A stretch of DNA of 64,000 nt from Marsupella aquatica (GCA_973895155.1 OZ316892.1:1429223-1493222), one strand, 5' to 3'. Positions 6,276 to 64,000 are shown, counted from the stretch's first letter. Translations and numbers: made by a program. The notes: generated by a model not told the origin, from the letters alone.

Positions 6276-7231
6276 CTGTCATCCATCGGGTAACCCAGCA
6301 GCACCAAAAGAATCTGTGGTGACCAACCTAACCTAATCTATATGCTAACGCTAAGGGCAATCTGTCCCTGTCAGCAACACAAGCACTCACCATGGTGTGG
6401 CATCACTCCAACATCACCAAGAGAGAAATACGTAGCACAACTAGAATGTCAGGTTGCAAACCCGGATCACTCCTATAGAATCAAGCGCCCATGCCAAACT
6501 AACATGGCGCATAAACAGAAAGCATGTGTGGAGAGGATCCAACAACAAGAAGCGGATTTACCACAACTCTCCACACCAATCAATCAAAAATACGTGAAAA
6601 TAATGTCCATATAGTTCAATGTAGGGCCTTCATAATAGGCTTCAAGAATCCTGCGTCAAATATTCAAGAATCCATCGCAAAATAGTTGAAATAGAGTAGC
6701 TAGATGAATTCAAAAGTGCATAAAACCCCTGAGGCCTCATTCCTTGGACATCAAATGTGGAAGGAAGCATGTACAATACACTACATAAGAACTAGCTAGT
6801 TAAGCGCTTGAGGGGAGGAATAGCTTTGGGATGGGTGACCTCTCACTTGTCATTATGCACCAAATCTGACACTCAAAACTGCAACACTTGCAAGTTCTCC
6901 TCACGTACCAGCAAGCTCCTGCTCCGCCCTCACGCCCCTTGTCCAGAGTAACCACGAGTTGCCTCAAAGCCTCAAAACGCCGAGATGAGCCAAAGAGTGA
7001 GCCCGCAACGCTTTGCTATGCTAGATCTAACTTTGGGTTTCGGCAATATTCGCATTTGGCCTCATCGTTCCTTCACGGAAATTGCAGGGCTGTCACCGGA
7101 TTTGACTTAAGTTCAGGTTTTGGCAACATTCACACTCGGCCTCATCGTTCCTTCACGGTGTCCGAGGATTTTTAACTACTCGAGAGGCACTGGGCCTTGC
7201 TACCTGTGCAAATTATGACTACTCACCTGAA

Positions 7232-11859: not shown

Positions 11860-12227
11860 TGTCGTGATAATTCAATTATTCATGATGAAATCATTATCAT
11901 TAAGTATATTATTTAGTATATAGATTATGTTTATATTTTGTTACGGGGTAACTAAATATTTTGACTATTACTTATGTGCATGCAAGGTAAGCAATTATGC
12001 AAACCACAAGGTGCATGCACAAATTGTTTTATTTGCATGCATTAGACTTTGTTTTATGTGCATGCAAGGTGAACAAATGTGCAAGCCACAAGGTGCATGC
12101 ACAAATTGTTTTAGATGCATGCAAATTGTTTTATTTGCATGTATTAGTTGTTTTATGTGCATGCAAGGTGAGCAAATGTGCAAGCCACAAGGTGCATGCA
12201 CAAATTGTTTTAGGTGCATGCAAATTG
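11860..12227 (+). mobile_element. Truncated U3 of LTR family F2
   Basis: TGTCGTGATAATTCAATTATT start and TGCATGCA-rich array, as at 14768 and 26081. Confidence 0.9.
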
Positions 12228-14764
12228 TCTGGACCGCGATCAAGAAACCCGACCATGCGGACTATCTCAAGGAGCATCAGTTGGAGTAGTTCGCTCACTT
12301 GCTATGGAGACCTAACGCAGCCGGACCAAGGAAGGTTTATGAGTTCATATCAAACTTTGACATTGACGCAGCGATCACCAAGGTTTCAGGGCAAACCTTA
12401 TCACTTATGGAGCATCGGTTGGCACATATCTTTTGTCTGCCAACCGGGCCGGTGTCAGTTGAACTCCAAATTTGGGATAAAGAGTATACACCCCAGCACT
12501 TCAAACCCGAGGATAAGACGGACAACGGGTACAAGCAGGGGTTATGCACCAACTTAGTCTATATGGAGCGGCTTAACTTCATACAGACTACCTTACACAT
12601 GATTGAGCCACAATCCAAGATCTCTCTCTATACGATCGTACAGGTGGAACAGTACAAACGATGGAACTGGGCCCAATTCTTTTACAGCAAGTTCTCAGGG
12701 GAAATTAAGCGGGCTCAAGGAGGTATGTCTATCGGGGGATGGACCTACCTGGGAAGCCACATCGCCATCATCCTCACCTGGTACAAGGCGCGGCGAGAGG
12801 CCAGGGGAAAGAATATCGCCACCTCAGCCCCAACTAGTGTCACCCCCGGTCCGGAGGAGGCTACCCCGAGCGAACAGACTACCACGCCTCAGGCAAACCA
12901 CGGGCCCGTGGCCCCGACAAATATATCGCCACCTCCTCCCATTGAAATTACACCGCCCCTTTCCGTCGAGCCTCTGCTACCCCTGGTACAACCACCCCCA
13001 ATCCCTCCACCACCTGAAGAAACCTTCCCCTCCCCATTGCAGACTACGGAGGAGCTCGCCGCCCCGCTCGAGGAACCACCGGTGCCCGAGAGGATGGAGG
13101 ATTACCAAGTAGCCCTGGGGACCATGGCCTACGACCTGGTCCAGAAGTTTAGTCAGACTATGTTAGGGGAGCTAGCGACGTACATCGGACAACCGGTCTC
13201 GGCGTACTTCCAACAAGCCTTCTTCATGTTAGAGCATCAACCGCGGATCGTAAGCCGCTTGGAGGAAGAACTCATGGCAAAGGGGAACGAGATCGGGCGC
13301 CTCCAAATGCTAGAAGAACACCTCGAAAAGGAGGCCACTACCCGCCGTGAGGAGTTAGTCCGCACCATTGAACAACGGGATGGACTAAGCCAAGAGTTGA
13401 GCACGGCGCAAGCAGATCTTAAGAAGCTTGATGACACCGTGCTTCAATTGCGCTCAGAATCCTCGGCTTGGGTTACCAGCCTTATCGACCTCAACAACCA
13501 ACTTCTGCAGGCAGCTCAACAGGTGGCTAGTCTCTCCGCCGAGCAAGATAAATTGCTGGCGCAGGACTAGAACCATCGTGACTCCATCGGCCAACTCAGC
13601 CTAGAGGTGGCATGGCTCCAGACCAAGGCCGACGAAGCTACAAACGAGGCAGAGGAGGCGGTACAGGATAACAAGGCCTTGCAGGATCACATTACCCTAC
13701 TCGTCCTCCAGCGGGCAAGACCTGGACCCACCTCTAATCAAGGCGGCTCGAGGTCTCGCCCCAACAAGAAGACAAACCCTGGTCCGACCACAACACGCAC
13801 GTAAGGGGTGGTTAGCGAAGGGTGTGAACAGGCGCCGCGCGAGGCAGTTGAGTCAGCAACATCTTTTTTATTAGGCTTAACGACAGAATGGCTATCATTA
13901 GGCATCGATTAGCGGCACAGTAGGAATAATTAGGACAAGGGCAGTTAGGATCAGCCGATGTAGGATAGAGTCCATTAACAGACTAGAATTTTGGTCAGTA
14001 GACTTAGCTACTGCCACCCCGGTCAGAGATAGTGCGGCCGGTTAGTCAGAAGGTAGTTATTCAATAGGCATTACCCCGGGAGGTAGTATCCTCTGGTTTT
14101 TTTCCGCAAACGTACTATTTAGGCTTCCCCTTCCCGCTGTGGGAGGGGGAGAAGGCTTAGTTATCTTAGCGCAAGAAAAAGCGAGGCACGGGAAGTCCCG
14201 GCTTGAGTAGGGTCAGAGTGCACTAAGGAGTGAGAATCAGAGTTGAGCTTGCGGGGCAAGTGCGGGGTGGGGCTTCGTAGAGACTGGGCATCAACTGCCG
14301 TTAGGCATGCTAACCCCCTTAGAAGTTGAGTCAACTATGTAAATTGATTCTTCATTGAGTAAATATAGTCTTTTCCCTTTGATTCTACCGCGAGTAACTG
14401 GTGTTGTGTGTATGCTTTGTCTGGGCAAAGGCGTCATTTCAAGGGACGTACCGGGTGCGGACTAATGGTAGGGATTGCCACCAATTGCATGTCATAAGGT
14501 TTTGTCGCGTCGATGGCTTGAAAGCCCCAAGCCGGGAGTTAGTCTGAGTCACTAACTGTGGGAATATTCCAACGGTGGAAAACAAATATACCTATGATTA
14601 ATGCGAGTTGTGTAAGTATCATACCAATAAGTATATCGACTTAGCCCGACTTAGGGCTAATTAGGACAACTACACACCTCCTTGCCGAACCCTCACCCCT
14701 ACTGGTGGTTGCGGTTGCCCCAGGGAAATAACTCGGATTTAAGGCCCGGATTATGGGCGCGACA
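12228..14764 (+). mobile_element. 3' part of giant LTR family Y, carrying the C-terminal two-thirds of its ORF (to 13804)
   Basis: Overlaps in sequence with 57193-57705; conserved domain, then Pro-rich linker and coiled coil; ends ...GGCGCGACA. Confidence 0.8.
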
Positions 14765-15617
14765 CGTTGTCATGATAATTCAATTATTCATGATGAAATC
14801 ATTATCACTAAGTATATAAGTAAGTATATAGGTTAGCTTTATATATTGTTACGGGTAACTAAATAATTTGACTATTATGTATGTGCATGCAAGGTAAGCA
14901 ACTATGCAAACCACAAGATGCATGTGCAAATTGTTTTATTTGCATGCAATAGTCATTTTATGTGCATGCAAGGTGAGCAAATATGCAAGCCACAAGGTGC
15001 ATGCACAAATAGTTTTAGGTGCATGCAAATTATTTTATTTGCATGCATTAGTTATTTTATGTGCATGCAAGGTGAGCAAATGTGCAAGTCACAAGGTGCA
15101 TGCACAAATTGTTTTAGATGCATGCAAATTGTTTTATTTGCATGCATTAGTTGTTTTATGTGCATGCAAGGTGAGCAAATGTGTAAGCCACAAGGTGCAT
15201 GCATGCACAAATTGTTTTAGGTGCATGTATTAGTTGTTTTACTTGCATGCATTATTTGTTTTGATTACAATAGTACTAGCACACATTCCTACGTTGGATG
15301 TGTGCCACTTGGCTTTCATCCAAACATTTGGGCGTAATCCATGCCCTCATGGATTCAATATAAATAAAGTGGTGAGGGACACTCTCTCCTCATTCCCACA
15401 TTTTAATAATTTCCGCGTCGAAGTGATTCTCTTTTATTCTCTCATCTTTCTCTTCTATTCTTTGCCTTACGTACATAGTAGTGGGGCATCCTTTGGCCCG
15501 GATAGCAAAGGAATGAGTGGTAGACTTATAGATGAGACCTTAGGGAACAAGGTCTTTTTGGAAACTTAGGGGTGGGGCATCCTTTGGCCCGGATAGCAAA
15601 GAAACAAGAGAATCATT

Positions 15618-15833
15618 ATGAATCCAGGAGGGAGAGATATCCCTAATCTTCCCCTTTGTAATCCATTTTTGGTTAGAGTCCATCTTTTAGACAATCCATC
15701 CATGAGGCAACATTTAACTTATCACTTTGGAGCTCAATTTGCAGCTGCTGTTATGAGTTCTAATGAGCCAATAGTATACCCAATAGTGTCTTACCGAGAG
15801 GAGTGGGAGTGCATTATCTTTGTCCTTTATTGA
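15618..15833 (+). CDS. LTR microprotein A (family F2, 71 aa)
   Basis: Intact ATG-TGA; conserved across four LTR families. Confidence 0.72.
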   Translation: MNPGGRDIPNLPLCNPFLVRVHLLDNPSMRQHLTYHFGAQFAAAVMSSNEPIVYPIVSYREEWECIIFVLY

Positions 15834-15837
15834 AGTC

Positions 15838-16047
15838 ATGGATCTAAATAGGAGTCCAGATGACATTCCTATCTCATTTTCTCTTGGAGATATTAGGATT
15901 GTATGTCATAGAAAAATTAGTTTTCGAGATGGTGTTGATCCGCAAGTATGGTGAAGTAGGATTTAATAGTATATATTAGTTTCACTTGAACCTTTCTTAA
16001 CACCCACCACCTTTCTTACAAGAGTTATCATTTTGGTTTTAGTGTAG
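15838..16047 (+). pseudogene. LTR microprotein B (F2, 5' LTR), frameshifted
   Basis: Matches 27173-27379 except for +1 (~15931) and +2 (~15971) insertions. Confidence 0.7.
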
Positions 16048-16123
16048 AACTTATGAGCATGCAAGGTTGACTTCATAAGAGCCAACATGCTCTTACCAGA
16101 AAACACGGTCACCCGGACATAAG

Positions 16124-16141
16124 TGGCGACCATACTGGGGA
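16124..16141 (+). other. Primer-binding site, tRNA-Arg-like
   Basis: TGGCGACCATACTGGGGA just after the 5' LTR; resembles the tRNA-Arg PBS TGGCGACTCCACTGGGGA of Tat/Ogre-type gypsy elements. Confidence 0.7.
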
Positions 16142-16199
16142 ACCGTTGGATTTTGGAGTTAGCTTGTGCAAGTCTAAGTTCTAGTTGAAGAAGAGTGAT

Positions 16200-17990
16200 A
16201 TGACTTTTGGAACTATGAGTCTTTGAGTTTTCAATATATCAATAGTCAAGAGGGAAGAATTGCAATCATAAGAGTTGCAGCTGAAAGATCCAGATAGGGT
16301 CACCTAGGCATCTTTCCTTGATTGGGTGACTGACAGAAGTAAGAAGTTGGGACCTCAAGAGTTGATGAGGGAGTTTGTCAAGAAGTTCAATCAACTTCTT
16401 GAGATAGGATCTAAAGTTATCAAGGTCCAGAAGGCTACTCTACTCATCCGGGCTGCTGATGAGAAGCTTCAGGATGAGTTAGAGCTTGCTCTTGAACTAC
16501 TGAACCCGAGTCGTGGGGCTAATCAGCCAACTTGGGAGGAGGTTGAGACTACTGTGCTAAGAGTCAGTCAAAAGCACAGAAGGAAGAAACTCCATCATGA
16601 AGGTGTTCTGGACACAATAGCACCTGTGACTTCTATAAGGAGAGTGGAGAAGATGGAATCAACAATCGGTAGGGGTGAGAAGAGTGTGGACAAGATGGAT
16701 GAGTTGTCTGAACTCATGAAGAATCTTACCATTCTTGCCATCCAAGCTTTGGGACAAATTGGAGGCAACACATCGAGACCACCATCAAGAGGTAGTGGAG
16801 GAGCAGGGAGTTCTATCGGAGGACCAAGAAGCTGGAATTGCATCTGGTGTGATAGCAAAGAGCACTCTAGAAGAGAGTGTGTTGAGCTGTCTGCTACTCT
16901 AAAAGAGAGAATAGTTAAGTTTGTTGAGCATGATGGCATAAGAAAGCTTGCCTACCACGATTCGGGTGAACTTATTCTAGTCAATGCCAACAAAGGTGGC
17001 ATGAAGGTACTAGTGGAGAAGAGAATGGCTGAACATCATAACTCAGCCATTGCTGCAGCTTATGGGGACAACGGTGAGCATGAAACAGATGTCTACACTA
17101 TGTTTGGGGATCCTTCGTCAGTAGGATCCTCAAAGACAGAGAAGAAAAGGTTGGCAGAGTTTGTAAGAAGGAAATCAGGTTGGAATGATCATGTTTTGAT
17201 CTCTGCTTTTACTGCAGAAGTAGGGTCTCTATGGGATTCTATGGTGGAGGAGAAAAGAAAGTCTGTGGAGCCTTTGGAAGAACGTGCTGAAGGAAAATAG
17301 AAAGTGGATTCTGGACCTTCTACTCCTAGGCCATCATCTGATGTGCCAATGAGAAGGAGTGTTCGATTTGAGGACAGAGTAAGCACGCCAAAAGAATCTA
17401 CTTCGACCCCTTCAAAGGAGTTGGAAGTAGTAAAAAAAGGAGAAGGCAGAAAAGAAAGGACCTGGTTGGATACTTGGAAAGGATGTGGAGCAACACATAG
17501 AGTATGACCAGGTTGCTGACAAGTTTTGGAAAGCCACAGTGAGTGGAGTCACCAATGAGGAGTTTTTTGCTTGCATGAACTCCAAAGCTCAAGATGCTTT
17601 ACTTGCAAAGGTGAAGCAAAAAAGATTTTATAAAGAAGGACCTCATGCATTGGGAGCAGAGTTTTATTCTGAAGTTGGAGAGGATGGAGAAGGTTCATTT
17701 TCAAGAGCTAATACAGAGTGTCAAGTGTATCAAGTAAATGTTGAGAAGATCCCTGGACCACAGATGCTAGGGTCTTCAAAAGAGGAGATCCCTGGACCAC
17801 AGATGCCAGAGTCTTCAAAGAAGAAGATCCCTAGACCACAGATGCCAGAGTCTTCAAAGAAGAAGATCCCTAGACCACAGATGCTAGGGTTTTCAAATGA
17901 TGAAGTTTCTGGACCACAGATGCCAGAGTCTTCAAAGGAGGTAGTTTCTGAAGCAAAGATGTCATAAGCTAAGCTATTGGATTTGGGAAG
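16200..17990 (+). pseudogene. gag: G2 gag, decayed
   Basis: Zinc knuckle CIWCDSKEHSRREC; ~5 x 39-bp repeats (KIPGPQMPESSK) at ~17745-17940. Confidence 0.8.
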
Positions 17991-20900
17991 TGTCACGTCA
18001 TTAGCCTTGGCCTTAACTCGGGCTTCAGCTTTAAACGGGCACCTCCTTCGTAAATATGAGGGTTCGGGCAGGGAGGGAAGAATATAATGCACCTAATTCA
18101 CTTAAACTAGCGCTAAGTGCGCCTACTGTTAGATACGGACATCTCCTAGGTATGGTTTGTGTTCCGCCGCCGGAACGTACCTTAGTCGATAATAGGATCG
18201 ACCCCGGCTTAAGGACTTCTAAGCCTTTGTGTTGTCCGCCTTCGATCCGGATTCTATGATACAGGTCCTCAACCCGTGCTTGCAACCACATACCTGCAAG
18301 CTGCACCTCGTGCACGACTCGGGTAGTGCGTTTGGCCCGGCGTTGTCACCTATACACGAGATTCACACACACATACACGCGCACAAGCATACAATCTCGA
18401 TTTACACGAAGGAAATAATGGGAAAGGATTTTACTACATAGGGGACATGTGCGTACACTTGGTTGACCCGACAACTCTGGAATAAACAGGTCAAGGCCGA
18501 GAGAGTATACTACAACGGAGCCCGGCTCCGCACTCACCCGGCGAGCTTAGTCCTACCCCCTCCCTTTGGTACTCTTTCACTCCCAGAGGTCGGGACTCCC
18601 CGCACATACCACGGATATCCAACTCTGAGACTAAAAACCCCCCCTTGCCTCTACCGAGGGGTGCACTAAATACTAAGGGCCGAGGAACGGAGTGTCCTCC
18701 CGCCCGAAGATTTGCTGACTTAGGTCCTAACTAATCTGACTGTCAGGCCGAAAAACGGTTGTGTCTTATTAGAAGATCCTAATCTATGCAGGCTGGACAG
18801 CATGGCAATGTTGTTGTAACTAAGGCAGGTGCCTGTCCCAATAGCCTGACTTAGCTATTCCTAACCCTATTCTATTCCTACTCCGCCGCTAATGCCTGGC
18901 ACGCTTGCCAGAGCCGCCCGAGTAGGAGCGGCCATCCCACTGCTTACGAAGTCTGTGTTGTCCGCCTTGAGGAGCTGGACCTGGTCTAGCAGAGATTCGT
19001 TCTCTCGCTTTGCCGCGTCCGTCTCCTCCGCTGCCTCCTGGCATGCCTCCTCCAGCTGCTGGGCGTCGCTCGTCAGCTTGCCCGCCAGCTGGTCCTGCTT
19101 CTCGGCCTCGGTTTGGAGTCGCACCACTTCGGCCTGTAGCGTGGCTATCTCCGCAGTGTCCGGCTGGGCCCGTTCTTCGGCCTCCTCCAGGTCTTTCTGC
19201 CAGATGACAGTTTGATTCTTCAAACTGTCAATCTGGTTTCGGAGTCGTGCAATCTCGGCCTCATTCCCAGCTTTGGCCTGCTCGGCTAGGGCGGTAAGGG
19301 CGTGCGCCTTTGCTAACAACTCGTCGGCGGCTGCAACTTTGGGTCGTAGTTGCAGAAGCTCAGCCTCTTGAGCTGCAACTTCATTCTTTAAGTATACGGA
19401 CTCCACCCGGTACCGCTCTATCCTCTGAAGGGCCTCTGACTGGGCCCGACCTGCCTTTACTGCGGCAACTAACTCCTGATTGAAGAAACAGGCTACCTTC
19501 CGGGCCATGAACTCCTCGGTATCCCGGGCAATTTGATGAGAGAAATCTTCCAGAAGCCCGTTCAGAAATGTACCCGGTACGAAGAGTTCCGGGTGGTCCA
19601 GGTTGTGCCTGTCCGGAGTTGGGCATGGGCAGACGTCAACACACGCGGGGGCCGAGGCAGTGACATCTAGCCCTGGGGATGTAATGTTGGAAGGGGCTGG
19701 AGTGTCCTCTTGCAGCAATGTTCGGTTCTCCGGAATAGCCACCGGTGGGTCTTTGGGAGACCCGGGCTCGAGTAAGACCTCCGCTGTACCGACTTCTGTA
19801 CTTAGCCCGGCTTGTTGGATCGCATCTATGGTTGCGATAACCGACCCATCCGGTACCTCCTCGGTTACGACTACAGCTACTTGTGGGGTGGGTGAAGCTT
19901 GCGTGTCCGCTGGACTTCAGGCCTCGGGTTGGGGCCCTCTCTCCAAGGCCAGAAAAACCCACCTAGCTGGGACTAGCTTTGTAACGTTGACACGGGGAAG
20001 GGTTTGTCGATCAAACTGAGCATACCACTCAAGAATGATCTCGATGTGGCTAGCAAAATACGCCTTCCCGCCAATGTACAGCGTCTTCCTTCGACGCTCC
20101 ATCTCTTCATGGAATTTCTTAGCGAAGTACGACGCCCACTTCCTAGGTCGATAGTTCTCGACCTGGATAACCTGGGCGGCGGAGATCTCCCCCCGGGGTT
20201 CCATCATGTGGAGGGTGTACCTTTGGAACTCCAGTCGCTCAGCTATCTCGGGGATGAGGCAGGTCCTCATCATGAACCCGTTGTCCACTACTCCCTCTAA
20301 GGGAAAACTCGAGGATTGGTACTTGGCTCCCTTGCCCCCGGGAGCCCGTGATTCGACTCGATGGTCATCTTTGGGTAATCCGAAGATCATCTTGAGCCGT
20401 TCTTCCGTGAGGGACATATTCCTTCCCCGCAACCGAGTATGCTGACGTGCGTCATCATAATTCTTGACGAATTCTGTCATGTCCTCCCCGTAGTACCTGC
20501 AAGTGTTCTAGGGGAGAGAGGCGAGGTGCTCAAATCCCTGAGTCTTCAGGTACACCGCATGCTTGGGATGGAGGATGTTCTTATGCACATTTTCCCCCAT
20601 GCGGTGCATTGTCACCTTGGCCACGGCTACCATGGCCAATGGTAACCCGGATGCAGTGGTGGGTTCCTTCCTCTTCTTCCCCCGTGACTGGCTCGGGGAG
20701 GGTGACACCTCCCCATCCTCTCTATCGGGCATAGGTAGTGCTACCGCCGTTAATATTGAGCCCGGGGCGGCCACGGTCACCGTGTTGTCTGTTGGAGCCG
20801 CTCCTTGGGTCCGAGCATGGAGAAGGGACGATGTAGTATCGGCCCCTTGAGTATTTGCTCCTCTGGGCCGCCTGAGCAAGGGTGGGGTAGCCTCGTCATC

Positions 20901-22001
20901 GTCGCTAAGGTCCACAGCGTTGATGATGGAGCGTACTTGTACTGCTGGCGGGACGATCGGCGGTGGGGGTTGGCTAGGCTGAGACTGAGACTAAGACTGA
21001 AGCTGAGCCTGAGCCTGAGTCTGCGTTGGTGTAGGTACAGGTATGGGGTCGACTGGGTCGGCGTCGGCGGTTGCGGGTCTAGTTCCCATGAAGCTTTGCA
21101 GGTGCTGGTAGAAGTTCTCCGAAGCAAGTGCAGAGGACCTTGTCGAACGGGTAGTGCTGGACTCGCTGTTGATGATAGCCCGAACCTAAGCAGGGATGTG
21201 GTCGAAGTGATGTCGTTGCAAGTCGATCGTACCCGGGATATTGAAGACCTCGTTCGAAAACCGAAGCAATGCTTCCCAGAAACTGATATATTTGTCTTCG
21301 TTGAAGAAGTACCCAGATACCTCTGCTGGTTGGTAAAGCTCGCTTTGAGACGGGTAGTCAAAGTTAAGGATGTAGTGGCGTCGTCCTGCTAGGCGGATGG
21401 CTCTCTCGTACTCGCATTCGATTTCGTATCGGTGCGGGTTGGCGTGTTTCAATGAGTCGGCCAAGTGTCTTCCGGTAGATAGGAACTGCGTCTAGAATCG
21501 AATGGCCGAACTGGAGAGGATCGTGTGCGACATTCAGAGGAGATAGTAGTGGCGACTAAGAGTGAACAAGAGAGCTGGGGTCGAAGCTGGCGCGTGGACT
21601 GATGGACTGGTGCACTACAAAGGGTCGGCTCCCTTTTTATACCTTGAGGGCTTGTCGATCCTCCGACATCTCCTTGTTGCCTATAGGCTGAACCGTTCAC
21701 GCTTGTAGTGTGTCGGCCACTTCGCCGGTCTGAGTCACCGCGTGTCAGTGGACGCCTCTTAAAGTTTGTTATACGGACCCGAGGGAGGGGGCCCCTCCAC
21801 GCTCGTAGCCCGGGCGTGCGAATGGCGACGCGCCGCCAGCCCGAACATGAATTCCCCTTATTGACTAATGATTTCCTACTCATAATGGATACCTAAATAC
21901 TGTCGTTATGCTAATCATAGCGGCCTAAGATACCCCTAACGCGCGTGCTAAGCACGATTTAGACCAAATTACTCATCACTCGCCGTACCGGCGGTATCAC
22001 A
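17991..22001 (-). mobile_element. 4011-bp solo-LTR-like element (family X) carrying one long ORF
   Basis: TG...CA ends; perfect 5-bp TSD GGAAG (17986-17990, 22002-22006); no terminal direct repeats and no pol; TATAAAA on minus near 21635. Confidence 0.88.
18867..21533 (-). pseudogene. ~888-codon LTR-encoded protein (N-domain, plant-retrotransposon accessory-ORF-like domain, coiled coil)
   Basis: ORFs 21464, 20915, 20480 and 19742 share one frame from ATG 21533 and are broken only by five nonsense codons; motif EFVKNYD...LRGRNMSLTEERLKMIFGLP. Confidence 0.8.
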
Positions 22002-22099
22002 GGAAGATGGGAACCATTGATGGGAGAAAAGTTTGACAAGTCACAAGAAGTGGCAAAAATCAGTCAAGAAGAGGTACTCAAGGCTTCACAAAATGTGTG

Positions 22100-25000
22100 G
22101 GTCATGTGTGCCTCTACCATGAAGAATCTTGAATTGGGAGATGGCAAGGAGTCCATCTTGGAACCATTTTAGGCAAGAACTTGCTCAATGGTGGAAATGG
22201 AGCTTGTGGGGATGGAGGGCAAAGCCCAAGCATTGATTGATACTGGATCAAAGGTAAATCTAATGTCAAGAAACATCTATGATCTTGGGCAATGGATGGT
22301 TGATTGTGATACCCAGTGGTCGGTAAACTCAATCAATCGTTCAAAGAATACACTTTGGGGAGGATGTCCAGGAGTTCCAGTGAAGGTTGGCAGTGTGATT
22401 GAGCCAACTAACATCTTTGTGCATGATAGCTTACCCTATGACTTGATTTTAGGGCAGCCTTACATTACTCAAGCTCGATTGAAATACAAGGTTTTGCCAG
22501 ATGGTACTCATATGGCAAAGGTGAGGAGTCGAGATGATTTGCGGATTATCCAATTTCCTATGGTGAAACCTGGACATTGGAGGAATCGAAAGGAGTTGAG
22601 AGGACCTGAATCCAAGGAAGGAAATGAGGATTTCCGGAAGGCGTCTCATTAAACAATGCGGGATGGCGGGGTGCCATCTCTGATGACCCGCTGATGGCTT
22701 GGAATATGAATAGTTTGTTGGCAAGCTCGTTTGAAGGTGAAGGCTTGCATTGACGAATTTCTTATGTGAAAGTGTGTGAAACTACTAGAAAATTCCAAAA
22801 AAAAATTGCGAGGATTGAGGATACTATGCAAATACATGGATTGCTAAAGGAATGTGAGGAGATTGAAGGCCTTCTAGATGAAGAAGGAGTGGTAGTCTCT
22901 TTGGAAGAAGTAATTGAAGGTCTTTCAGAGGGGAGAACTTCTATGGAAATCAGTCATGAGTTGTATGGTGAATTATCTCAATTTGTTGAGGTCAACACCA
23001 AGTACAAAACGGTGGACAAGAAAGTGAGACCAGCGGCACTTCCTTTGCCTTTGGATGCTAAGGAGGTTCTGGAGAAGGCAAGGAAGGAGACCAGTCTTAG
23101 AGATCGGACTAAGATTGGCCATAAATTCACAGAGGGGACCCTTAATCAACTAAGGATTGGCGATGATGGGCTGTTGACAAGGAGAGAAAGAGAGAAGTTT
23201 CGACAAATGATTGGTGAACATGGGTAAGGCTTTTGTCTTTTATCCTGAAGAGATGGGATGTGTGGATCCTAGTGTAGTTACTCCTATGGTGATTTTCACT
23301 GTCCCTCATATTCCTTGGGACTTGAAACCTATTCCGGTGCCCAGGGCTTTGTTGCCTAAACTTGTTGATCTATTGAAGGAGAAACTTTTCACTAGGATCT
23401 TGGAAAGAGCAGATGCACCTTATTCTAATCGTTGGTTTACCATTCGCCAAAAAAATGGTAAACTTAGATTTATTCAGGATATGCAACCACCCAACAAGGT
23501 TATTATTCGCAACACTGGGATAGGACCTATAGTTGATGAGTTTGCAGAAGAGTTTGTCGGTAGAGTCATCTATTCATGTGGTGACCTCTATTCAGGCTAT
23601 GATCAGTTTCAGTTGGCTCAAAGTAGTATAGATATCACTACAATGAGGACACCTTTGGGGCTACTTCGTATATGTACTTTGCCTCAAGGAGCAACCAACT
23701 CAGTGGCACACATGCAGAATGCCATGAATAAGGTACTACATTGTTTTATTCCAGAGAAGACTCAACCATTCCTTGATGATATGCCAATCAAGGGGTGCTT
23801 GGAGGCAAATAAGGATGAGACTATACGAGAAGATGGGTTGCGACAGTTTGTATGGAAGCACATTCAGGATGTGAAGGCCATCTTGAAGAGACTGATTGAG
23901 GTTGGGCTCACTCTTTCTAGAGAAAAATCTTCATTTGGGCTCCATGAAGTCCTGATTGTGGGACAGATTTGTGGAGTTGAAGGAAGGAGGCCAAATGAAG
24001 GAAAAGTGGATGCAATCAATCAGATGAAAGATTGCAGAACATCTTCAGAGGTGCGAAGATTTCTTGGTGCTTGCTTATTTTATAGGGTTTAGATTCCACA
24101 CTTTGCACATATTGCTGATCCCTTGTATGGATTACTAAAAAGAATGTGCAATTTGTTTGGACTGAGGCACACAAGGAGGCTATGCAAAGATTAAAGGAGG
24201 CATTACTTAGCCCCCTTGTTATACGTCCCTTATGCTATGATGGGAGGCCAATCATTGTTACTGTCGATTCAAGCCCTGATGCTGCTGGATGGGCAGTAGG
24301 GCAATATGATGAAGAGGAAAGGAGAATTGCATCAAGGTTTGGGGCTAAGGTCTTTTCAGCAAGACAAAGACATTATCCTCAAATCAAACGAGAATTATGG
24401 GGTGCAAGAACAGCTTTGTGTCAAGAAAAGGTCTACTTGATTGGAGCACAAATAATTCTTGAGATAGATTGTTTATCACTTTTAGGGATGATTGCTAATT
24501 ATGATACTCCAGATATTGCTATGCTACGTTGGATAGCTTTTATCAGAATGATCAATCCTGAGCTTCGACATATTGCTGGAAAAGATAGCCCTGTAGCTGA
24601 TATGCTGTCAAGAGCTCGATATGATCATACTGAGACATCTGAAGCAGTTCAAGTGATGAGTGGAGAATTTGAGATTTTACAATTTCAAGAGAAACTATAT
24701 TCTGGACAGTTGCTTTTGATTGGGAGGTACCTTAGTACTCTTCAAAGGTCTTCTGAATTGACAGATGATGAGTTTCAGCGATTATGGAAGAAGGCTTACA
24801 AGTTCATGCTGAAGGATGGTGTCTTATGGAGAAGATCTTTGAAAAAAGGACATGTTCCATGTAGAGTGCTTGATACTGAAGAGGAGAAGAAAAAGGTCTT
24901 GTGGGACTCTCATGATGCAGTTGAAGCAAGACATCGAGGAGTTAGAGCTACTTATGAGCGGATTCAGAGATGGTATTGGTGGTCAGGCATGTATGTGGAT

Positions 25001-26040
25001 GTGAAATCATATGTTGGGTCTTGTAAGACTTGCCAATATTACTCCAAAGTTTGATTTAGGGATGGGCTTAATCCTACTAGTCCTTTATCATTACATTTTC
25101 AGTGGGCAATAGATGTGGTGCACATGCCATTGGGAGTTAGAGGAGCAAAGTACCTTGTCCTTGCAAGAGAAGATTTATCTTCTTATGTGGAAGGAAGAGC
25201 TTTGACCTCTAATACTACTGAAGCAATATGCAGGTTTGTACTTGAAGATATCATTGCACGTCACGGTTATTTTGTGCAAATGAGAGCAGATAGAGGAGAA
25301 CTCAATTCGGATGAGGCTGCAGATTTCTTTGATCGATTCAACATCAAGCTCAAACTTACTACTGCCTACAACCTGGAAGGCAATGGGAAGATTGAGCGAG
25401 GGCACCCACCGATTATAAATGCCTTGGTAAAGTCTTGCCAAGGAAAAGCATCAATGTGGCCAAACCTTTTACCGTTTGCTCTTTTAGCATATCGGATGAC
25501 ATGCACTTCAACAACAGGATTTGCACCTGCCGAATTGGTCTGTGGACATTTACCTTTGATGCAGATTGAAGAGAATGTTCAAAGCTTGAGAATAATTGAT
25601 TGGGAAGATGACATCACTCGAGAGGATTTATTGGAACGAAGGATTGAGCACTTTAGCCAGACCAAGGAGAAAATTGAGGAGGCTTTATTAAGGCTCGTGA
25701 GAAGAATAAGGAGCAATTTGATAAGACTCATCGTTTGAGACCAATTCCAATCCAGAGTGGAGATTGGGTATTGATCTATGAAGGAGGACTTGAGCAACAA
25801 CATTCTACCTTAAAGAAGTTTGCACGTCATTGGAGATGACCATTTGTTGTTGAAAAAGTCAATCCTAATGCAACCTACTTGGTTAGAGAACTGGATGGAG
25901 CAATTCATCGCACTCCCTATGCAGGAAAGCGAGTGAAATTTTTCAAGCGGCGAACTCACTTTATGGCAAAAGAGAAAGAGTTTGAACCAGATGACTTTGA
26001 AGCTTTGGATGAGGATGAAGATTATCGTGATCTATAGGTG
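22100..26040 (+). pseudogene. pol: G2 pol (PR, RT, RNase H, integrase), decayed
   Basis: ALIDTGS, DLYSGYDQ, LPQGATNS, FLDD, VDSS, H..H/CKTC zinc motif, RADRGE, GKIERGH. Confidence 0.93.
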
Positions 26041-26952
26041 TGGTGCATCCGGAGGTTGCACAGATTTGGTAGGAATGATATGTCGTGATAATTCAATTAT
26101 TCATGATGAAATCATTACCACTAAGTATATAAGTAAGTATATAGGTTAGCTTTATATATTGTTACAGGGTAACTAAATAATTTTACTATTATGTATGTGC
26201 ATGCAAGGTAAGCAACTATGCAAACCACAAGATGCATGCACAAATTGTTTGGATGCATGTGCAAATTGTTTTATTTGCATGCAATAGTCATTTTATGTGC
26301 ATGCAAGGTGATCAAATATGCAAACCACAAGGTGCATGCACAAATAGTTTTAGGTGCATGCAAATTATTTTATTTGCATGCATTAGTTATTTTATGTGCA
26401 TGCAAGGTGAGCAAATGTGCAAGTCACAAGGTGCATGCACAAATTGTTTTAGATGCATGCAAATTATTTTATTTACATGCATTAGTTGTTTTATGTGCAT
26501 GCAAGGTGAGCAAATGTGCAAGCCACAAGGTGCATGCATGCACAAATTGTTTTAGGTGCATGCATTAGTTGTTTTACTTGCATGCATTATTTGTTTTGAT
26601 TACAATAATACTAGCACACATTCCTACGTTGGATGTGTGCCACTTGGCTTTCATGCAAGCGTTTGGGCGTAATCCATGCCCTCTTGGATTCAATATAAAT
26701 AAAGTGGTGAGGGGCACTCTCTCCTCATTCTCACATTTTGATAATTTCCGTGTCGAAGTGATCCTCTTTTCTTCTCTCATCTTTCTCTTCTATTCTTTGT
26801 CTTATGTACATAGTAATGGGGCATCCTTTGGCCCGGATAGCAAAGGAATGAGTGGTAGATTTATAGATGGGATCTTAGGGAACAAGGTCTCTTTGGGAAC
26901 TTAGGGGTGGAGCATCATTTGACCCGGATAGCAAAGGAATAAGAGAGTCATT

Positions 26953-27168
26953 ATGAATCCAGGAGGGAGAGATATCCCTAATCTTCCCATTCGTAACCCA
27001 TTTTTGGTTAGAGTCTATCTTTTAGAAAAGCCATCCATGAGGCAGCATTTAACTTATCACTTCGGAGCTCAATTTGCAGCTGCTGTTATGACTTCTAATG
27101 AGCCAATAGTATACCCAGTAGTGTCTTACCGAGAAAAGTGGGAGTGCATTATCTTTGTCCTTTATTGA
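26953..27168 (+). CDS. LTR microprotein A (F2, 3' LTR, 71 aa)
   Basis: Intact; same family as 15618. Confidence 0.72.
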   Translation: MNPGGRDIPNLPIRNPFLVRVYLLEKPSMRQHLTYHFGAQFAAAVMTSNEPIVYPVVSYREKWECIIFVLY

Positions 27169-27172
27169 AGTC

Positions 27173-27379
27173 ATGGATCTAAATAGGAGTCCAGATGACA
27201 TTCCTATTTCATTTTCTCTTGGAGATATTAGGATTGTATTTCGTAGAAAAATTAGTTTCCGAGATGTGTTGATCCGTAAGTATGGTGAAGTAAGATTTAA
27301 TAGTATATTAGTTTCACCTGAACCTTTCTTAATACCCACCACCCTTCTTACAAGAGTTATCATTTTGGTTTTAGTGTAA
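27173..27379 (+). CDS. LTR microprotein B (F2, 68 aa)
   Basis: MDLNRSPDDIPISFSLGDIRIVFRRKISFRDVLIRKYGEVRFNSILVSPEPFLIP...; ATG 4 nt after the ORF A stop. Confidence 0.72.
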   Translation: MDLNRSPDDIPISFSLGDIRIVFRRKISFRDVLIRKYGEVRFNSILVSPEPFLIPTTLLTRVIILVLV

Positions 27380-27451
27380 AACTTATGGGCATGCAAGGTT
27401 AACTTCATAAGAGCCAACATGCTCTTACCAGAAAACACGGTCACCCGGACA

Positions 27452-28225
27452 CCGGGATATTGAAGACCTCGTCCGGAAACCGAAGCAATGCCTCCCAGAA
27501 GCCGATGTATTTGCCTTTGTCATAGAAGTACCCTGATACCTCTTCGGGTCGATAAAGCTCGCTCTGGGATGGGTACTCAAAGTTAAGAAGATAGTGGTGG
27601 CGGCCTGCTAGGCGGATGGCTCTCTCGTATTTGCGTTTGATCTCGTATCGGCGCGGGTTGGTGTGTTTCAATGAGTCGGCCAAGTGCCCTCCGATAGACA
27701 GGAACTGTGTCCAGAATCGTATGGCCGAACTGGAAAGGATCGTGTGTGACATTCAGAGGAGATAGTAGGTGACTAAGGATAAGCGAGAGAGCTAGGGTCG
27801 AAGTTGGCGCGTGGACTGAAGAACTGGTGGACTGCAAAGGATCGGCCCCCTTTTATACCATGAGAGCTTGTCGATCGCCCGACGCCTCCTTGTCGCTCAT
27901 AGGCCAAGCCTTTCACGCTCGTAGTGTACCAGCCACTTCGCCGGTCCGGGTCAGCTCGTGTCAGTGGCCGCCTCCCAGAGTTTTTTATACGGACCCGAGG
28001 GAGGGGGAAATGGGGCCCCTTACATGCTCGCAACCAGGGCGTGCAAATGGCGACCCGCCGCCAGTCCGAACATGAATTCCCCTTATTGACTAATGATTTC
28101 CTATTCATAATGGCTACCTAAATACTGTCGTTATGCTAATAATAACGGCCTAAGATACCCCTAACACACGTGCTAAGCGTGGTTAGACCGAATCACTCAT
28201 TACCCACCGTACCGGCGGCGTTACA
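27452..28225 (-). mobile_element. 5' part of a second family-X giant LTR
   Basis: Similar to 21233-22001; minus strand starts TGTAACGCCGCCGGTACGG; ORF start MSHTILSSSAIRFWTQF at 27752. Confidence 0.88.
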
Positions 28226-29245
28226 ATCTAGCAAACCAAAAGGTAAGGCTTGGTTTAATGATTGATCTATGTACTGGATAGATTGATGTACAGTTTTAAG
28301 AACTTGCAAAGTAACAAGCATTATATATGTTTATGTTGTTTCCTGGTTTTGAAATGCTATGATGTTTTTCAGGGCATTTGCGTCGTGCTCTCTCTACGTC
28401 CAAGCACTCTCTTGTACTGATCTGCCATTTGAACTCCAAGGTACAGCCAAGCAATATTCTTCCCTAGTGCTTTCTTTCCTTGTATTTTGCACTTCTATTA
28501 TCAAAGGATAATGTACAGGGCATTGTGTGTTCTTAGGTAAGTTATCATTTCAACTTTGTCACTTTCCGCTGTAGATTTAGAACTTGTTTGCAGGGCCCAT
28601 CGAATTAATCAGAGACCATGGGGAAGTAATGCCCTCATTGGAGACTGCTAGATTTGGTCGCTGGCAGTCTAGCGCTCTATTAATTTTGAAGCAGGTTGCC
28701 CAAAAAGTGTATATAGGGGGCGTTGAGTGCTTAGAGTCTATTAGGTAATAGGGCTTGGGTGGTCTAGTCTCAACTTCTCTGCTGGTATCAATAGTGACTC
28801 TGCAAAGCCCAACTAACTATTGGAGGAGAGGGATGCCCATGCTCTCTTGTGCTTACGCCAAAATTGGAATCCTTGCATGCAAAGGGTACGTCTCTTCCCA
28901 CCCTAAATTCTTGGAGAAAGCAACAATGGACCTTGCAAAGCCAATCACCACGAGAAATGTTTGGGATGGGGCAAGGCCCTCGTGGGATTGTTCAAGTGGA
29001 GGCGGTCTCCAAACGTCTGTTGGGCTAGAATACTTTGTCGTTCTATCCATGTTATCCCTCTGACTTCTTTCTGTCAATCTTATCCCTCTGACTAGCTTCT
29101 TTCTATTAATCTTATCCCTCAGACTTATCATTTATTCTTCCACACTCATCATTTGCAAAAGAACCTATGTTGTCTGCCTAATGAAAACATAGGAAGTTGA
29201 CCCTCATGGTGTTGATGGTCATATTGTATTCTCAAATGTTTGCAG

Positions 29246-32200
29246 GCCCATGTAAGGTGCATAGGGTTACAAAAGAGGGTGTGATAGAATGCCGCCCACC
29301 ACACTATACAAGAATGCAAAGAAAATGGGAGAAACTCAATCTTATTGAGGATTTTGGGGGGAAGATCATTATCATCCCCATGAATGGTAGTGATGCTCCC
29401 ATTCAGAATGTGCTGGTAGGACCGCATCAAGTCCTCCGAAGTAGCAATGCCTCAAATGGGCCATCCTGGACTGAGAGTGACGAGCGTGCCACTTCTCTGA
29501 TCATGGACGAACCTGAATTGGGCCCTGGTCAAGATTCTGAGGCTCCATCATCTGAGCCCGAGCCTGAGCTTGAGCCTGAGCCTGATCTACAAGTCACCTT
29601 TCTGTCTGAAGGATGTCCAATGATCTTAAGAGAGTATGGACATCATCTGTGGAGAAGTTGTTGGCTTACATGGAGTCTATTAAATGTGGTGACCACAAAT
29701 GGAAGGTCAAAACCTGGGACAAAGACAACCTACCAAGGGGACATCTTGAGTGTTGTGAGTGTGATACTCAGGTGGAGGATTGATGGATAAAATATCCATC
29801 AACAATGCTTTCACAAACTACAAGAGCAAGCATTTGCGCTCATCCAAGCATACAGCCCGTGTTGCATCAAACAGGGGGGAAACTATGGACCCACGGGAGA
29901 TTTCAAGAAGGGCTCTTGCTACTAGTATGAGCGATAGAGTCATACTAGACCAACATCTGAGCATAGTTGCAAAGGTCTTGAATGAGTCCCAGAGTGTCGG
30001 TCGGGATACATTTACTGTTGTGGGTGATGTCTAGAAGGACCCGGTGGAGCTGTAGAGGTTGAAGCTTTTCTGCAATTTTTGTCTATGCCACATGTCATTG
30101 ATACCAAAGCAATGGAACTTGGAGTCCAACCTCAACGCTCATTGTAGTGGGTTGAGTCATCTTGATTACGTGACAAAAAGTCAGAGGCCTGCAAGAAACG
30201 AGCCTGTCATGTCAGGACGTCCTGGAAGACCCCAAATTGTGGATGGGAGGGATGTCAAACAACGGACAATCCAGGGGTTTTTGAGCCGTTTGTCCGCTGC
30301 AAGTGCTTCCAGCAGTTCCTCTCGAGTGCCTACAACAGACAATGACAGAGGTATTATTGATAACTTATCACTTTTGTGTTGGGGTCTATGGCGGGATGAG
30401 GTACAATATGGTTCAGAATCCAGGCCTATCAAGGGAGTCTTGAATGATCAAGTCAAAGTAGAGGGGAAGTGGTTTGTAGAGCCTTTGGTCAGGGTAGAGG
30501 TGTGGTGTTTGTCCACTCAAGAGACTTGTGTGATCATGGGTTTATTCAGACATTCCGAATGTAGGCGAATTTCACAAGAAGGGGGTGGTTTTGAAGATTT
30601 GACATGCTCAAAATGTTTTTCCATAAAAACATTAGATGACTTTAGACAAAGGGTATCAAGAGAAGATAAAGCCCTTGAGAAACGGGGTTTGAGAGGGACT
30701 GGGAAGGGTAGGCGCCTAGGGTACCTCAATGTTTTTGAGATTCAGAGGCAAGCTAAAGTGTATAGGAATACTCTTTGCAGAGAGAGAAAGTTACAGAGAT
30801 TCCTCAACCATAAATTGCTTATGTTTAAGTCCTCAATTCCAAGTGTGAGGGAGGTTTGCCTCAACTATCAGGGTCCAAACAAGGAATCTGTCATGAAAAC
30901 TTGCTAGTCAATAGTTTTAGCACACAAAAGGGGTGCTTTTGGTGGAAGGGGTGCTCTATGGGATATGTTGTCAGATATAGCTTCAAACTTGAACAAAGAG
31001 AAGGAAGGTTATAGATATAAGCCAGGAACAAAGCTTTTATGCCAAACATTGTTCTTGCATGGTGGGCGTCATGTAGTTGACTGCCTTGCCACTAACGGAA
31101 TAGGGCCTAGTTTAAACACCCTGCAACGAGACAGGAGAGGTATGCCAGTGTTTAGAGCAGGGATCCATGAATCTCAATTCAAGTTTATTGCAGAGATCTA
31201 CTCTGAAATAAAAAAACGCCTGGATATATCAGGCCCAATTCACTGCTTTCTGGCAGAGGACGAGACCTATGTCAAGCAAACAGTCAAGTAATTTGCCTTC
31301 AACAACTTATGAATATTTGTCAAAGCTGTTCAATGACTTCTCTAGTTCAAGTACGTGGAGTTCTTTGAACATACACTAAAGTAGTGACATCTTGCATTCT
31401 TTGCAGATGGTTGCCTAAAGATGATACACTTCTTGGATTTTGTGGAAGCAAAACTGACCATGAATGTAAGACTGGATTGCAAATAGAGGTGTGGCAGGGA
31501 GAAGTTGGCTTCAACAACATTATAGGTGCTTTTGATAATTCAAGGGTAGGGCACCTTGCAAGGTGTGTGATAGTGAATCCTCTTGGCGTGGGGTTCCCTC
31601 GCTTGCCTGTACTGGGCACGTCAACCTGTAATACGTTTGACAGTCCTTGGGTCAGGAGACAATGGAGTGACATGGATTCAATGTGGACCACCCACTATCT
31701 AGAGAAGGTGGGGCCTCTACTAGGCCACGCAAGTGATGGGGATTTGCAAAGACAAAAACTCATGCTTGAGGACTACAGTGGAAGAGGGGTACCAGGGCCA
31801 AGGGCACCAAACCTGATGTGGGAAGGTTTTAAACTAACTCACACCATGACCAATGATGGAACATTGAGGCATGCAACAGGGCTACATGATCAGGATTTTA
31901 TCCACAATGGGAAGAAACTAGTTAATCCACTGGATTCTACTACCCGGATCCTAAAATTAGGGTCACAGGTGGCAAACTTGAGTCACTTGAGACATGTCTA
32001 CCATTTATATGAGCATGAAGAGCATGGTCTTAATGAGGAGGACATAAGACGTGCAAACAGGCAAAATTGGGCAAGTGCACAAAGGCTGTGTAGCCGCAAA
32101 GTGAGTTCCATGCTAAAGATGCTACGATTGCGCAAGGATCCAAAGGTGGAGCTGGCAATTGGGACTGAGGTTTATACAGGGATATGTGCTGATTACTTGG

Positions 32201-33850
32201 ACATATTTATGAATACCCGACTCACTTTGCGAGAGAGAATTGTCCTATGTGAGAAAGTGGGTTTCTTTTTCAAGTTGTGGCGTCTGTGGTGCTTCCATGG
32301 TAATCATGCAGTGGGAGGTAACACATAGAGTATAACTTTTACCAAGAGCTACATCCCTATGCAAACTTTCCTGGACATACAGATATCAGTCCATTTTGTA
32401 GTCTTCTTGATAATTCAATTTAGGACTAATTTCCGTCATCTACTAGTGCCATTACATCTGACCGGGTCAGATGCTTGTGAACAGTTTTTTTCCAAGGTAG
32501 GGGGTATGCGGGGTAATGAGCGGAACTATGATATAGCTCAGAATTAATAGAGTATGCAACCTCCCTTAATAGGTTGGCTGCAATGGATCTGGCAGAGGGA
32601 ATAATGGGTGTTGGACAGAGCCATAAAAGCATAAGAGCATTTGGATGACTCTTCATCCTGCAAAAGAGGGGACTGATATAGAGGCAGACCAATCAGATTA
32701 CACAGGGATTGAGACTGATGCAGATGTCGTCCTGGCTTTGCAAGAGGGGTTCAAATTGGCTCAAACTGCAGCCACTGAATTGCAAATGAATCCTTCAACA
32801 TCTGCCAACAACAAACTATGGTGGAATTCACCATGGAAAGTTGAGGAGAAAGACACCAAGTTTGGTGGTTGGTGTAATATCAATGTGGACACCTTGGTAG
32901 ATGTGCGGGATACTCTTCCTCTTGAGTCCACCCCTAGAACCACCTCCACTGAAAATGTACTTGGAATTGCATCATCATCTACACCAATATCAGCCCCAAT
33001 GTCTAGCCCAAGCTTACAGGCGGGTGTCATCCCTACTGTCATTCCTACTGGCGAGGAGAGGGAGGTCCATAGGGAGGTAGACCCAGATTTAGAGGTGGTT
33101 GGGGCTGAACTGGAGGCTACCATGAATGTGATATATTCAAACTTGGTTTATGGGGCGCCCATACAGGAAGTGTGTCCAACTGTCACCCATAATGGACGAG
33201 AGATCTACAAAAGTACGTTGGTAAGTCAGCTTGTTGGGAACCCTCATCTCAGTAAGGACCGACTGACCCGAGTGAAGCAGAGTATATACTTCAATAACTT
33301 GGTGGATAAACCCACATTTTGTGAAGGAGTTGCAACTATGTTCATGACAGTCGGCAGTGATTGTGGGGTATTATTTTTGGATGAAACAGAAGAGGTCAGA
33401 ACTACTCGAAACACAGAGGCCAATTCTAGAGCATAGAAAGGGAAGGGTCAACGGGGAAAAAAGAAACAGTCGGTGCAGAATCCTAGAAGGCCAAGAGGTG
33501 AAGCAGTACCTGCATCTTCTACTCCTTTTCCAAAATATGGTTGGTGGATTGGTAGAGTATAGAGCATACATCAGAAGTATGGGGGTACCATTGCCAGATC
33601 AAGAGAAGCACTAGATCTACTAGATAGACCTGGTTCTGAAGCAGGGTGTCAAGTTGTCTTCAATTGGTTTACTCCTATTGGCACTCGTAGGCATAAATTT
33701 GCCTACAATATATGTGATCCTCAAACCATCGACATGGACTGTGTCATATCAACAGTCAATTTCACAGTTGATCCCTTGTATCGTTCAGTTTTTGAGTTAC
33801 ATCCAGATGATGTACTTGCCCTCGACAATTTTGTAAGGAACAACATAGTG
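29246..33850 (+). pseudogene. P-element/THAP9-like DDE transposase with N-terminal zinc fingers and an intron, decayed
   Basis: Motifs LAEDET, HASDGD, QDFIHNGKK and SDACEQFFS in P-type order; C2H2-like fingers (CNFC...HCSGLSH); GT-AG intron 31288-31406 restores the frame (TVK-WLPK). Confidence 0.65.
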
Positions 33851-35243: not shown

Positions 35244-35425
35244 ATGGTACCTCGGTCGACGTAATAATCACTTTTTCTTAATTCGTAATCATTCAGTCAA
35301 CTAACCTACTCCTAATCTATTCATAATGACAAAGATGACTATTTGTGCTACTCTATGCTACGGTCCTAATGACCGTATAAGTCCTAATCTAGGACCTACG
35401 TTCAGTTAAGTGACACATTACCCGT
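35244..35425 (-). mobile_element. Diverged 5' end of a family-Y-like LTR
   Basis: Similar to 4543-4730. Confidence 0.7.
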
Positions 35426-35596
35426 TGTCCGGGGGTTTTAAACTACTCGAGAGGCACTGGGCCTTGCTGCCTGTGCAAATTATGACTACTCACCTGAACT
35501 ATATAAGCACAAAAATACTCAAAGTTTCCTTTTGGATGATCCCCGTAAAGTATTAGAGCTTCTTTCGAAGATACTATAATGTTATATAACTATTCT

Positions 35597-58524: not shown

Positions 58525-58838
58525 AGCCGACTAGTTATCATTTGTGTTCTCTTGGCCGATACGGATTGCAGGAAGGTGATCGATGGGGCTCACTTACACC
58601 CGGCCTCTTGATCTTCACTTAAAAAGACCGTGTATATCAGCCTTGTAGAACTCATGGCTAGCTAGAGTTGGGGGACCTTAATCCTAGCTAGGGGAGCGAT
58701 TATGGGTTTTGGACATGTGTGGACATGAGTTCCACTTGTATTCTATTCTCTTGTGTTTGTGATGCTGCATTGTGGATATGTTTGGATGTGTGTGACAAGC
58801 GGTGTATGTTGTGTAGCAATGTGTATGCGCACGACAGC

Positions 58839-63987: not shown

Positions 63988-64000
63988 AGCTCAAATTCTG

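Follow-up and report, generated by a model that had tools for sequence, protein, structure and literature searches.

The stretch of Marsupella aquatica DNA that we analysed (64,000 nucleotides, GCA_973895155.1 OZ316892.1:1429223-1493222; hereafter the window) contains a 4-kb unit with TG...CA ends that carries one long gene on the minus strand (family A), together with pieces of a second, related family (family B). The coordinates of the features are collected in Table 1. Along the minus strand, the TATA box of the family A unit comes 361 bp in and its ATG at 469 bp, and the 888 codons are followed by 876 bp up to the end; the TATA box had been noted in the initial annotation, which placed it slightly further in, at ~365 bp. 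On the plus strand the first letters of the unit are TGTCAC and the last ATCACA, and TG/CA ends are read on either strand. As the initial annotation had stated, a single reading frame is broken by nonsense codons only: the frame from 21533 to 18867 contains five internal stops (four TAG and one TGA) and zero frameshifts, against 25-44 stops in the other five frames, and none of 2000 base shuffles had five or fewer. At the TGA, essentially all contig depth in all four of the public sequencing runs used here (X1-X4, from two studies) shows another letter, so this break is private to the 17991-22001 copy. The copy is a decayed pseudogene, and the complete expression cassette that the initial annotation saw in solo LTRs does not apply to it, the frame being broken by five stops. 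The genes of families A and B evolved under purifying selection; dN/dS between copies is 0.20 over 99 codons in family A and 0.19 over 167 codons in family B, with values of 1.0-1.5 in shifted frames.

Table 1. Features of the family A unit, its host element and the related pieces in the window.
Feature	Coordinates	Strand	Remarks
Family A unit, solo-LTR-like	17991-22001	-	4011 bp; TG...CA
TSD GGAAG, left	17986-17990	.	one copy in empty-site contigs
TSD GGAAG, right	22002-22006	.	one copy in empty-site contigs
Leader	21534-22001	-	468 bp; 85% alike in second copy
TATA box (TATAAA)	21636-21641	-	kept in second family A copy; putative promoter
ORF	18867-21533	-	888 codons + stop; internal stops at codons 14, 116, 181, 342, 539
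Conserved N-terminal domain	21177-21512	-	residues 8-119; unassigned to a family
Core domain	19998-20618	-	~residues 306-512; predicted VANC21/plant-mobile-domain fold
C-terminal coiled coil (putative)	18954-19448	-	~residues 696-860; weak coiled-coil family matches, all below curated cut-offs
Trailer	17991-18866	-	876 bp; TTAAGGCC starts 26 nt, CCGAACCCTCA 77 nt from CA end
Second family A copy	27452-28225	-	5' 774 bp only; 85% alike; cut by host element's 3' LTR
Host element, unrelated Ty3/gypsy	14768-27451	+	LTRs 14768-16119 and 26081-27451, 4.3% apart
Family B 3' part	12227-14764	+	core, coiled coil, 960-bp trailer, CA end; ends GCGACA
Family B 5' part	55903-57704	+	TG end, leader, ORF start to core; starts TGTGAC
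Family B second 5' part	3744-4736	-	starts TGTGAC
Family B short leader fragment	35240-35425	-	TG end missing

The family A unit sits in the gag-protease region of a Ty3/gypsy host element with reverse transcriptase, RNase H and integrase matches. Contigs from the public runs join the empty site from 17968 to 22002 (X3), from 17985 to 22033 (X2 and X3) and from 17809 to 22051 (X1, X3 and X4), and a single X4 contig passes from 17990 directly into the sequence starting at 22007, with one GGAAG at the empty site. Because the empty-site contigs lack the unit and 17990 runs on to 22007, GGAAG is a true duplication upon insertion, and the TG...CA ends and exact 5-bp target site duplication (TSD) of the initial annotation are borne out by both the sequence and these contigs. 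That annotation had also reported no internal LTR pair and no gag or pol, which agrees with our searches: within 17900-22100 there is no direct repeat longer than 25 nt, terminal or internal, and the three ORF pieces scanned gave no gag/pol Pfam match. None of the listed primer-site motifs lies on the ORF strand of the unit, and scans of the sequence gave 0 Rfam matches and no tRNA. Ginger-type DNA transposons have TG ends and terminal inverted repeats (TIRs); we rejected this class for the unit, in which TIRs of tens of bases are missing, no inverted repeat of ≥12 nt joins end to end, and the inverted match at the ends amounts to ~5 nt only. The host element has no matching TSD (CACGT on the left, CCGGG on the right) and has family B next to it at one end and family A at the opposite end; because the TSDs mismatch and different families flank each side, the sequence arrangement at 14768-27451 suggests that two host copies recombined. 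A cut host LTR, the third, lies at 11860-12226, and five 39-bp in-frame repeats occupy 17705-17964 in the gag-protease linker of the host, just before the insertion site.

Relative to three flanking host bins, the median depth inside the unit (26 bins) was 58-fold in run X1, 74-fold in X2, 26-fold in X3 and 39-fold in X4, ratios that are not to be read as copy numbers and that include one run that may be the source of the window. The lowest-depth bin inside the unit was still 7-17 times the flanks, and the leader, ORF and trailer were all high in the four runs. Since the depth rises 26-74-fold at both ends of the unit in all four runs, this many-copy repeat spans the full 4 kb. At the left end, at least nine of the 77 contigs examined exit at 17990 or 17991 into other flanks, and these contigs, the depth and the second copy in the window together place fixed ends at unrelated sites. 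The nine junction contigs listed have no dominant or readable shared flank, in a comparison that lets contigs sharing just 30 nt with the copy escape detection and that missed the main subfamily, which differs from the 17991-22001 copy near the end. A primer site in a mixed loose-end consensus was rejected, its letters being blends of 2-4 contigs. Scans of IMG/VR and JGI metagenomes gave no locus for the unit.

The protein consists of an N-terminal domain, a low-complexity linker with a basic stretch, a 200-residue core, another linker and a putative coiled coil. A four-sequence profile run against 1.84 billion proteins found 149 at E 0.001 or better, and a word-indexed protein search for the core found 0 among 305 candidates (488-1554 aa), followed by 1 of 1353 and 1 of 2268 in further runs. 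Of the twenty relative clusters looked up, six come from the liverwort Calypogeia fissa as products without a name, one has members called 'hypothetical protein' and 13 are nameless; relatives of this kind make a non-seed plant the likely host. P0154 is an uninterrupted 906-aa homologue with 28% identity over residues 8-858 (E 6e-84). In Calypogeia fissa a related ORF is present twice, and these copies, CAM6101869.1/CAM6101870.1 and CAM6101879.1/CAM6101880.1 (P0166/P0017 and P0167/P0165), have the same break, are 98-99% alike and lie on equally long contigs with mirrored accession order; they are possibly an LTR pair or an inverted duplication, and the mirrored order hints at an inverted pair.

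A Pfam scan of the family A protein itself gave no match to an Athila/Tat accessory ORF. Among the 131 aligned relatives, 11 match Transposase_32 (PF20167), and in the ESM Atlas the clusters nearest to the P0154 core are unnamed plant ones (0.93), followed by DUF1985 and plant mobile domain (PMD) clusters (0.90, a borderline score). The likeness to Athila/Tat accessory ORFs proposed in the initial annotation is thus absent from Pfam for the unit's own protein and is suggested at the superfamily level by the Transposase_32 matches, the PMD clusters and the fold. The core modelled from 131 sequences reached a pLDDT of 96 (37, and unusable, from four sequences), and VANC21 was the top match of this model in both PDB structure searches. 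One search returned 9lnk with Z 8.2, an rmsd of 4.1, 193 aligned residues and 11% identity, the next of 48,161 chains having Z 2.4, although a Z near 8 can reflect a common arrangement; Foldseek returned 9lnj with a probability of 0.91, TM of 0.57 and E of 0.13. The core domain is predicted to have the VANC21 (DUF1985) fold. The model had no match in a viral fold library at E 0.001, and PDB searches by sequence gave no match for the core and otherwise coiled-coil noise. VANC contains DUF1985 (PMC5735166, excerpt) and has a fold in common with the host silencer MAIN (PMC13547354, excerpt), and PMDs are present in gypsy elements (PMC5418596, excerpt). Because MAIN has the same fold and gypsy elements carry PMDs, the link to VANC fits the literature and does not fix the function.

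Within the window, tblastn located cores 36-38% identical to that of family A at 12194-12784 and 57217-57705, in family B. The plan of this family runs from a TG end through a leader, an ORF and a 960-bp trailer to a CA end over ~3.8 kb, as pieced from two partial copies that are 83% alike, and is never seen whole. TTAAGGCC starts 26 nt from the CA end in both families, and CCGAACCCTCA starts at 77 nt in A and 80 nt in B. Both family A copies have the TATA box, and family B has a TATA-like word only. Short palindromes of differing sequence lie just inside the 5' TG (21973-22001 in A, where it is hairpin-forming, and 55903-55925 in B). In a quick tree of 105 of the 131 rows, 26 rows with less than 70% core coverage having been dropped, A, B and four Calypogeia rows fall within one 24-row group with support of 83, and a sister relation of A and B is unsupported. 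An ORF at 62157-63990 (minus strand) lies outside this group, in the tree's other main group; it encodes a distant core homologue (~22% identity) in a different, CpG-poorer element, and P0002, an 808-aa relative of it, differs in the C-terminal domain.

Other elements adjoin these pieces. LTRs lie 3 bp past one family B 3' end (14764-14768) and ~7 bp inside the 5' end of another copy (35419-35430), and family B ends may attract insertions. Gypsy element pieces at 57705-58550 and 4737-6300 comprise an integrase piece and then a Cys-rich stretch, presumably PHD-finger-like. A young copia element at 35597-41384 has LTRs that are 99% alike and an unbroken 1548-codon polyprotein frame (36123-40769, minus strand), and a run of broken ORFs at 29185-34564 (plus strand), with no Pfam match, looks like a decayed DNA-transposon gene.

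The layout of the two families bears on the case that the initial annotation had set against its own reading, in which the unit is a deletion derivative of an ordinary short-LTR element with an internal accessory ORF. Such an origin would agree with the plant accessory ORFs described in the excerpted sources, all of which lie between LTRs (PMC7264820; PMC6317226; PMC4408406). Leader and trailer have no repeat in common, however, so that two deletions would be required, and the product could not be copied again, yet the depth is high across the whole 4 kb; the same layout recurs, moreover, in the second family. With two deletions needed and no multiplication thereafter, we regard this origin as very improbable.

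TG...CA ends with a 5-bp TSD and without a terminal inverted repeat are the mark of an LTR integrase, and we take the ends and the TATA position of the unit to be LTR-like. To our knowledge, an LTR without a partner lacks any primer site or repeat by which it could be copied. A solo LTR is the simplest reading because the unit has the ends and TSD of an LTR integrase and yet lacks a primer site or repeat for copying, and we consider it probable that the unit is the solo LTR of a paired element. An LTR-retrotransposon integrase would have inserted a paired element with two 4-kb LTRs, and recombination between both LTRs would have removed the inside and left a solo LTR. In plant non-chromoviruses, LTRs reach ~5 kb, a range that includes the 4 kb of the unit (PMC6317226, excerpt). 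The earlier proposal of an accessory gene inside a giant LTR gains from the repetition of the whole 4 kb, the same layout in a second family and the superfamily link, and it loses from the fact that no paired copy, primer-binding site (PBS) or polypurine tract (PPT) was seen. In the window, none of the four intact 5' ends is preceded by a purine tract (3-7 purines of 15, the host's own having 10), and neither of the two 3' ends is followed by a TGG primer site. These absences fit mostly-solo LTRs and a never-paired unit equally.

A never-paired unit would be a stand-alone, single-gene 4-kb TG...CA element that an LTR-type integrase, or else a related transposase, of another element mobilises in trans and that perhaps gives its VANC-like protein in return. 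The absence of a PPT at 4/4 intact 5' ends and of a PBS at 2/2 3' ends speaks for it, as do the only complete copy, which is unpaired with a perfect TSD, and the nine junction contigs listed, among which no flank dominates. The public contigs that carry several of the relatives measure 3.6-4.8 kb, near the unit size, and could also be transcripts or collapsed LTRs. An unpaired unit with no terminal direct repeat, a ~5-nt inverted match and no primer-site motif has no known copying route, however, its ends and TATA position are, as we take them, those of an LTR, and the junction data comprise 77 contigs from which those sharing just 30 nt with the copy are missing. We hold the stand-alone unit to be unlikely.

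Two features of families A and B concern self-recognition. The observed/expected CpG ratio is 0.75-1.07 in all five A and B pieces, compared with 0.19-0.49 in nine of ten other element stretches, the tenth being the young copia (0.68); youth or GC-rich coding could account for this retention. In a word test that covered the units in full, coding and non-coding, CRGACTA occurs 12 times on both strands of family B against 0.82 expected, and 0 times in family A. This level was reached by 0 of 40 best-word shuffles and in 0 of 6 other window stretches. The ORF stretches of family B contain the word seven times against 0.95 in synonymous shuffles (none of 1000 reached this count), and it is kept at 4/4 sites comparable between family B copies. 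The sites are dispersed, with these seven in the ORF stretches tested and three in non-coding parts. In family A no word stands out from the controls (best log10 p -4.4, controls -2.9 to -5.4), and its non-coding parts have no repeated motif. Among the best 34 listed differences inside the unit, from a listing with 836 further rows, 30 are of the C-to-T type in the 17991-22001 copy, and 20 of these 30 lie in a CG or CHG context (47% expected, p 0.024). Since it decayed at cytosines, mostly CG and CHG, this copy was unshielded after insertion.

The binding sites of VANC are short motifs in its own element, and VANC removes methylation (PMC5735166, excerpt). In our reading, transcription of the unit would start from its TATA box, the predicted VANC21-fold core would bind the element's DNA sequence-specifically, and through binding of its own DNA the element would escape silencing. 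The protein likely binds the DNA of its own element, and anti-silencing, rather than another regulatory role, is about an even call. With such another role, the unit would still be a solo giant LTR, and its protein would regulate transcription, nuclear entry or integration in a Tat/Rev-like manner. Roles of this kind have been proposed for plant accessory ORFs (excerpts of PMC7264820 and PMC11963269), and a fold in common proves no function; no word is significant in family A, and the 17991-22001 copy decayed at methylatable cytosines. CpG retention in A and B and the family B word are nevertheless what a VANC-like system predicts, and we find the Tat/Rev-like regulator decidedly unlikely. Our best reading, which we put forward as somewhat probable, is that the unit is a solo giant LTR of a Ty3/gypsy-type element holding a VANC-like anti-silencing accessory gene. 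A wider generalisation is tentative and rather doubtful, namely that in non-seed plants several 4-kb TG...CA families are complete VANC-like self-recognition cassettes, each with a promoter, a gene for a DNA-binding protein and a target word of its family, and that the unit is either a solo LTR that goes on providing its family with anti-silencing protein in trans or a new mobile gene, free of gag-pol, that is never paired.

What the accessory ORFs of plant retrotransposons do is an open question (PMC7264820, excerpt). New here are the VANC21-like core model, the CpG retention in both families and the family-specific dispersed word in B. The family A unit offers an accessory ORF with a confident VANC21-matching model in a compact unit with a putative promoter, and family B a candidate target word; one binding assay and one methylome can therefore test the anti-silencing role. 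Were the unit an LTR, the gene would survive the removal of its element by LTR recombination, and the host's purge would spread the counter-defence. Annotation would list such units among ordinary host genes, and the relatives in Calypogeia fissa are unnamed gene models. The finding also bears on the origin of VANC, as mobile DNA of a lineage distant from dicots encodes a VANC-like predicted fold; if the wider generalisation is true, VANC-type anti-silencing would operate in a retrotransposon setting far outside dicots.

Protein genes in LTRs are familiar from animal retroviruses, in which MMTV sag and HIV nef are ORFs in or overlapping the U3 of the LTR; these resemble the unit in having a protein gene in the LTR, but the LTRs and ORFs are far shorter and the proteins unrelated. 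In plants, the extra ORFs of Athila, Tat, Ogre and Retand elements (PMD PF10536, Transposase_28 PF04195, Athila ORF-1 PF03078; excerpts of PMC6317226, PMC4408406 and PMC11963269) and Transposase_32 (PF20167) probably belong to the same broad superfamily as the unit's protein. The putative coiled-coil tail, 5-bp TSD and LTR-like ends are alike, and the unit size is within the 5-kb LTR range. Athila/Tat-type extra ORFs are, however, located between the LTRs in the excerpts of PMC7264820, PMC6317226, PMC4408406 and PMC11963269, whereas the family A gene lies inside an LTR-like unit. In the mainly open-access literature that we searched, main texts only, we found no plant LTR described as enclosing a protein gene; the tables of extra ORFs in PMC6317226 may affect this novelty. 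The 5S sequence of the Cassandra TRIM appears to be the nearest plant analogue, the LTR of Cassandra, as proposed for the unit, holding a gene-like sequence together with the promoter; it differs in having a 5S RNA sequence, a polymerase III promoter and short LTRs where the unit has a 2.7-kb protein gene (PMC7215508, excerpt). The host PMD proteins MAIN and MAIL1 have their fold family in common with VANC (PMC13547354, excerpt), but they are encoded by host genes that silence transposons, whereas the unit's gene is on mobile DNA (excerpts of PMC5418596 and PMC13547354).

The closest likeness is to VANC21 of the Arabidopsis VANDAL21 element (9LNK/9LNJ), to which the predicted fold of the core is alike over 193 residues. 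The conserved core, variable flanks and coiled coil of VANC recur in the unit's protein (PMC13547354, excerpt). The short family-specific word of VANC has a candidate counterpart in family B, no word being significant in A; VANC words stand in tandem repeats in non-coding DNA, whereas the family B word is dispersed and also occurs in the ORF. Mutator elements make a 9-bp TSD, and the unit departs from the Mutator-like origin of VANDALs in its 5-bp TSD and in having no transposase within it. VANDALs are described as Mutator-like DNA transposons and VANC as dicot-specific, and the unit is neither (PMC13547354, excerpt). The unit, while no member of VANDAL/VANC, likely works like one.
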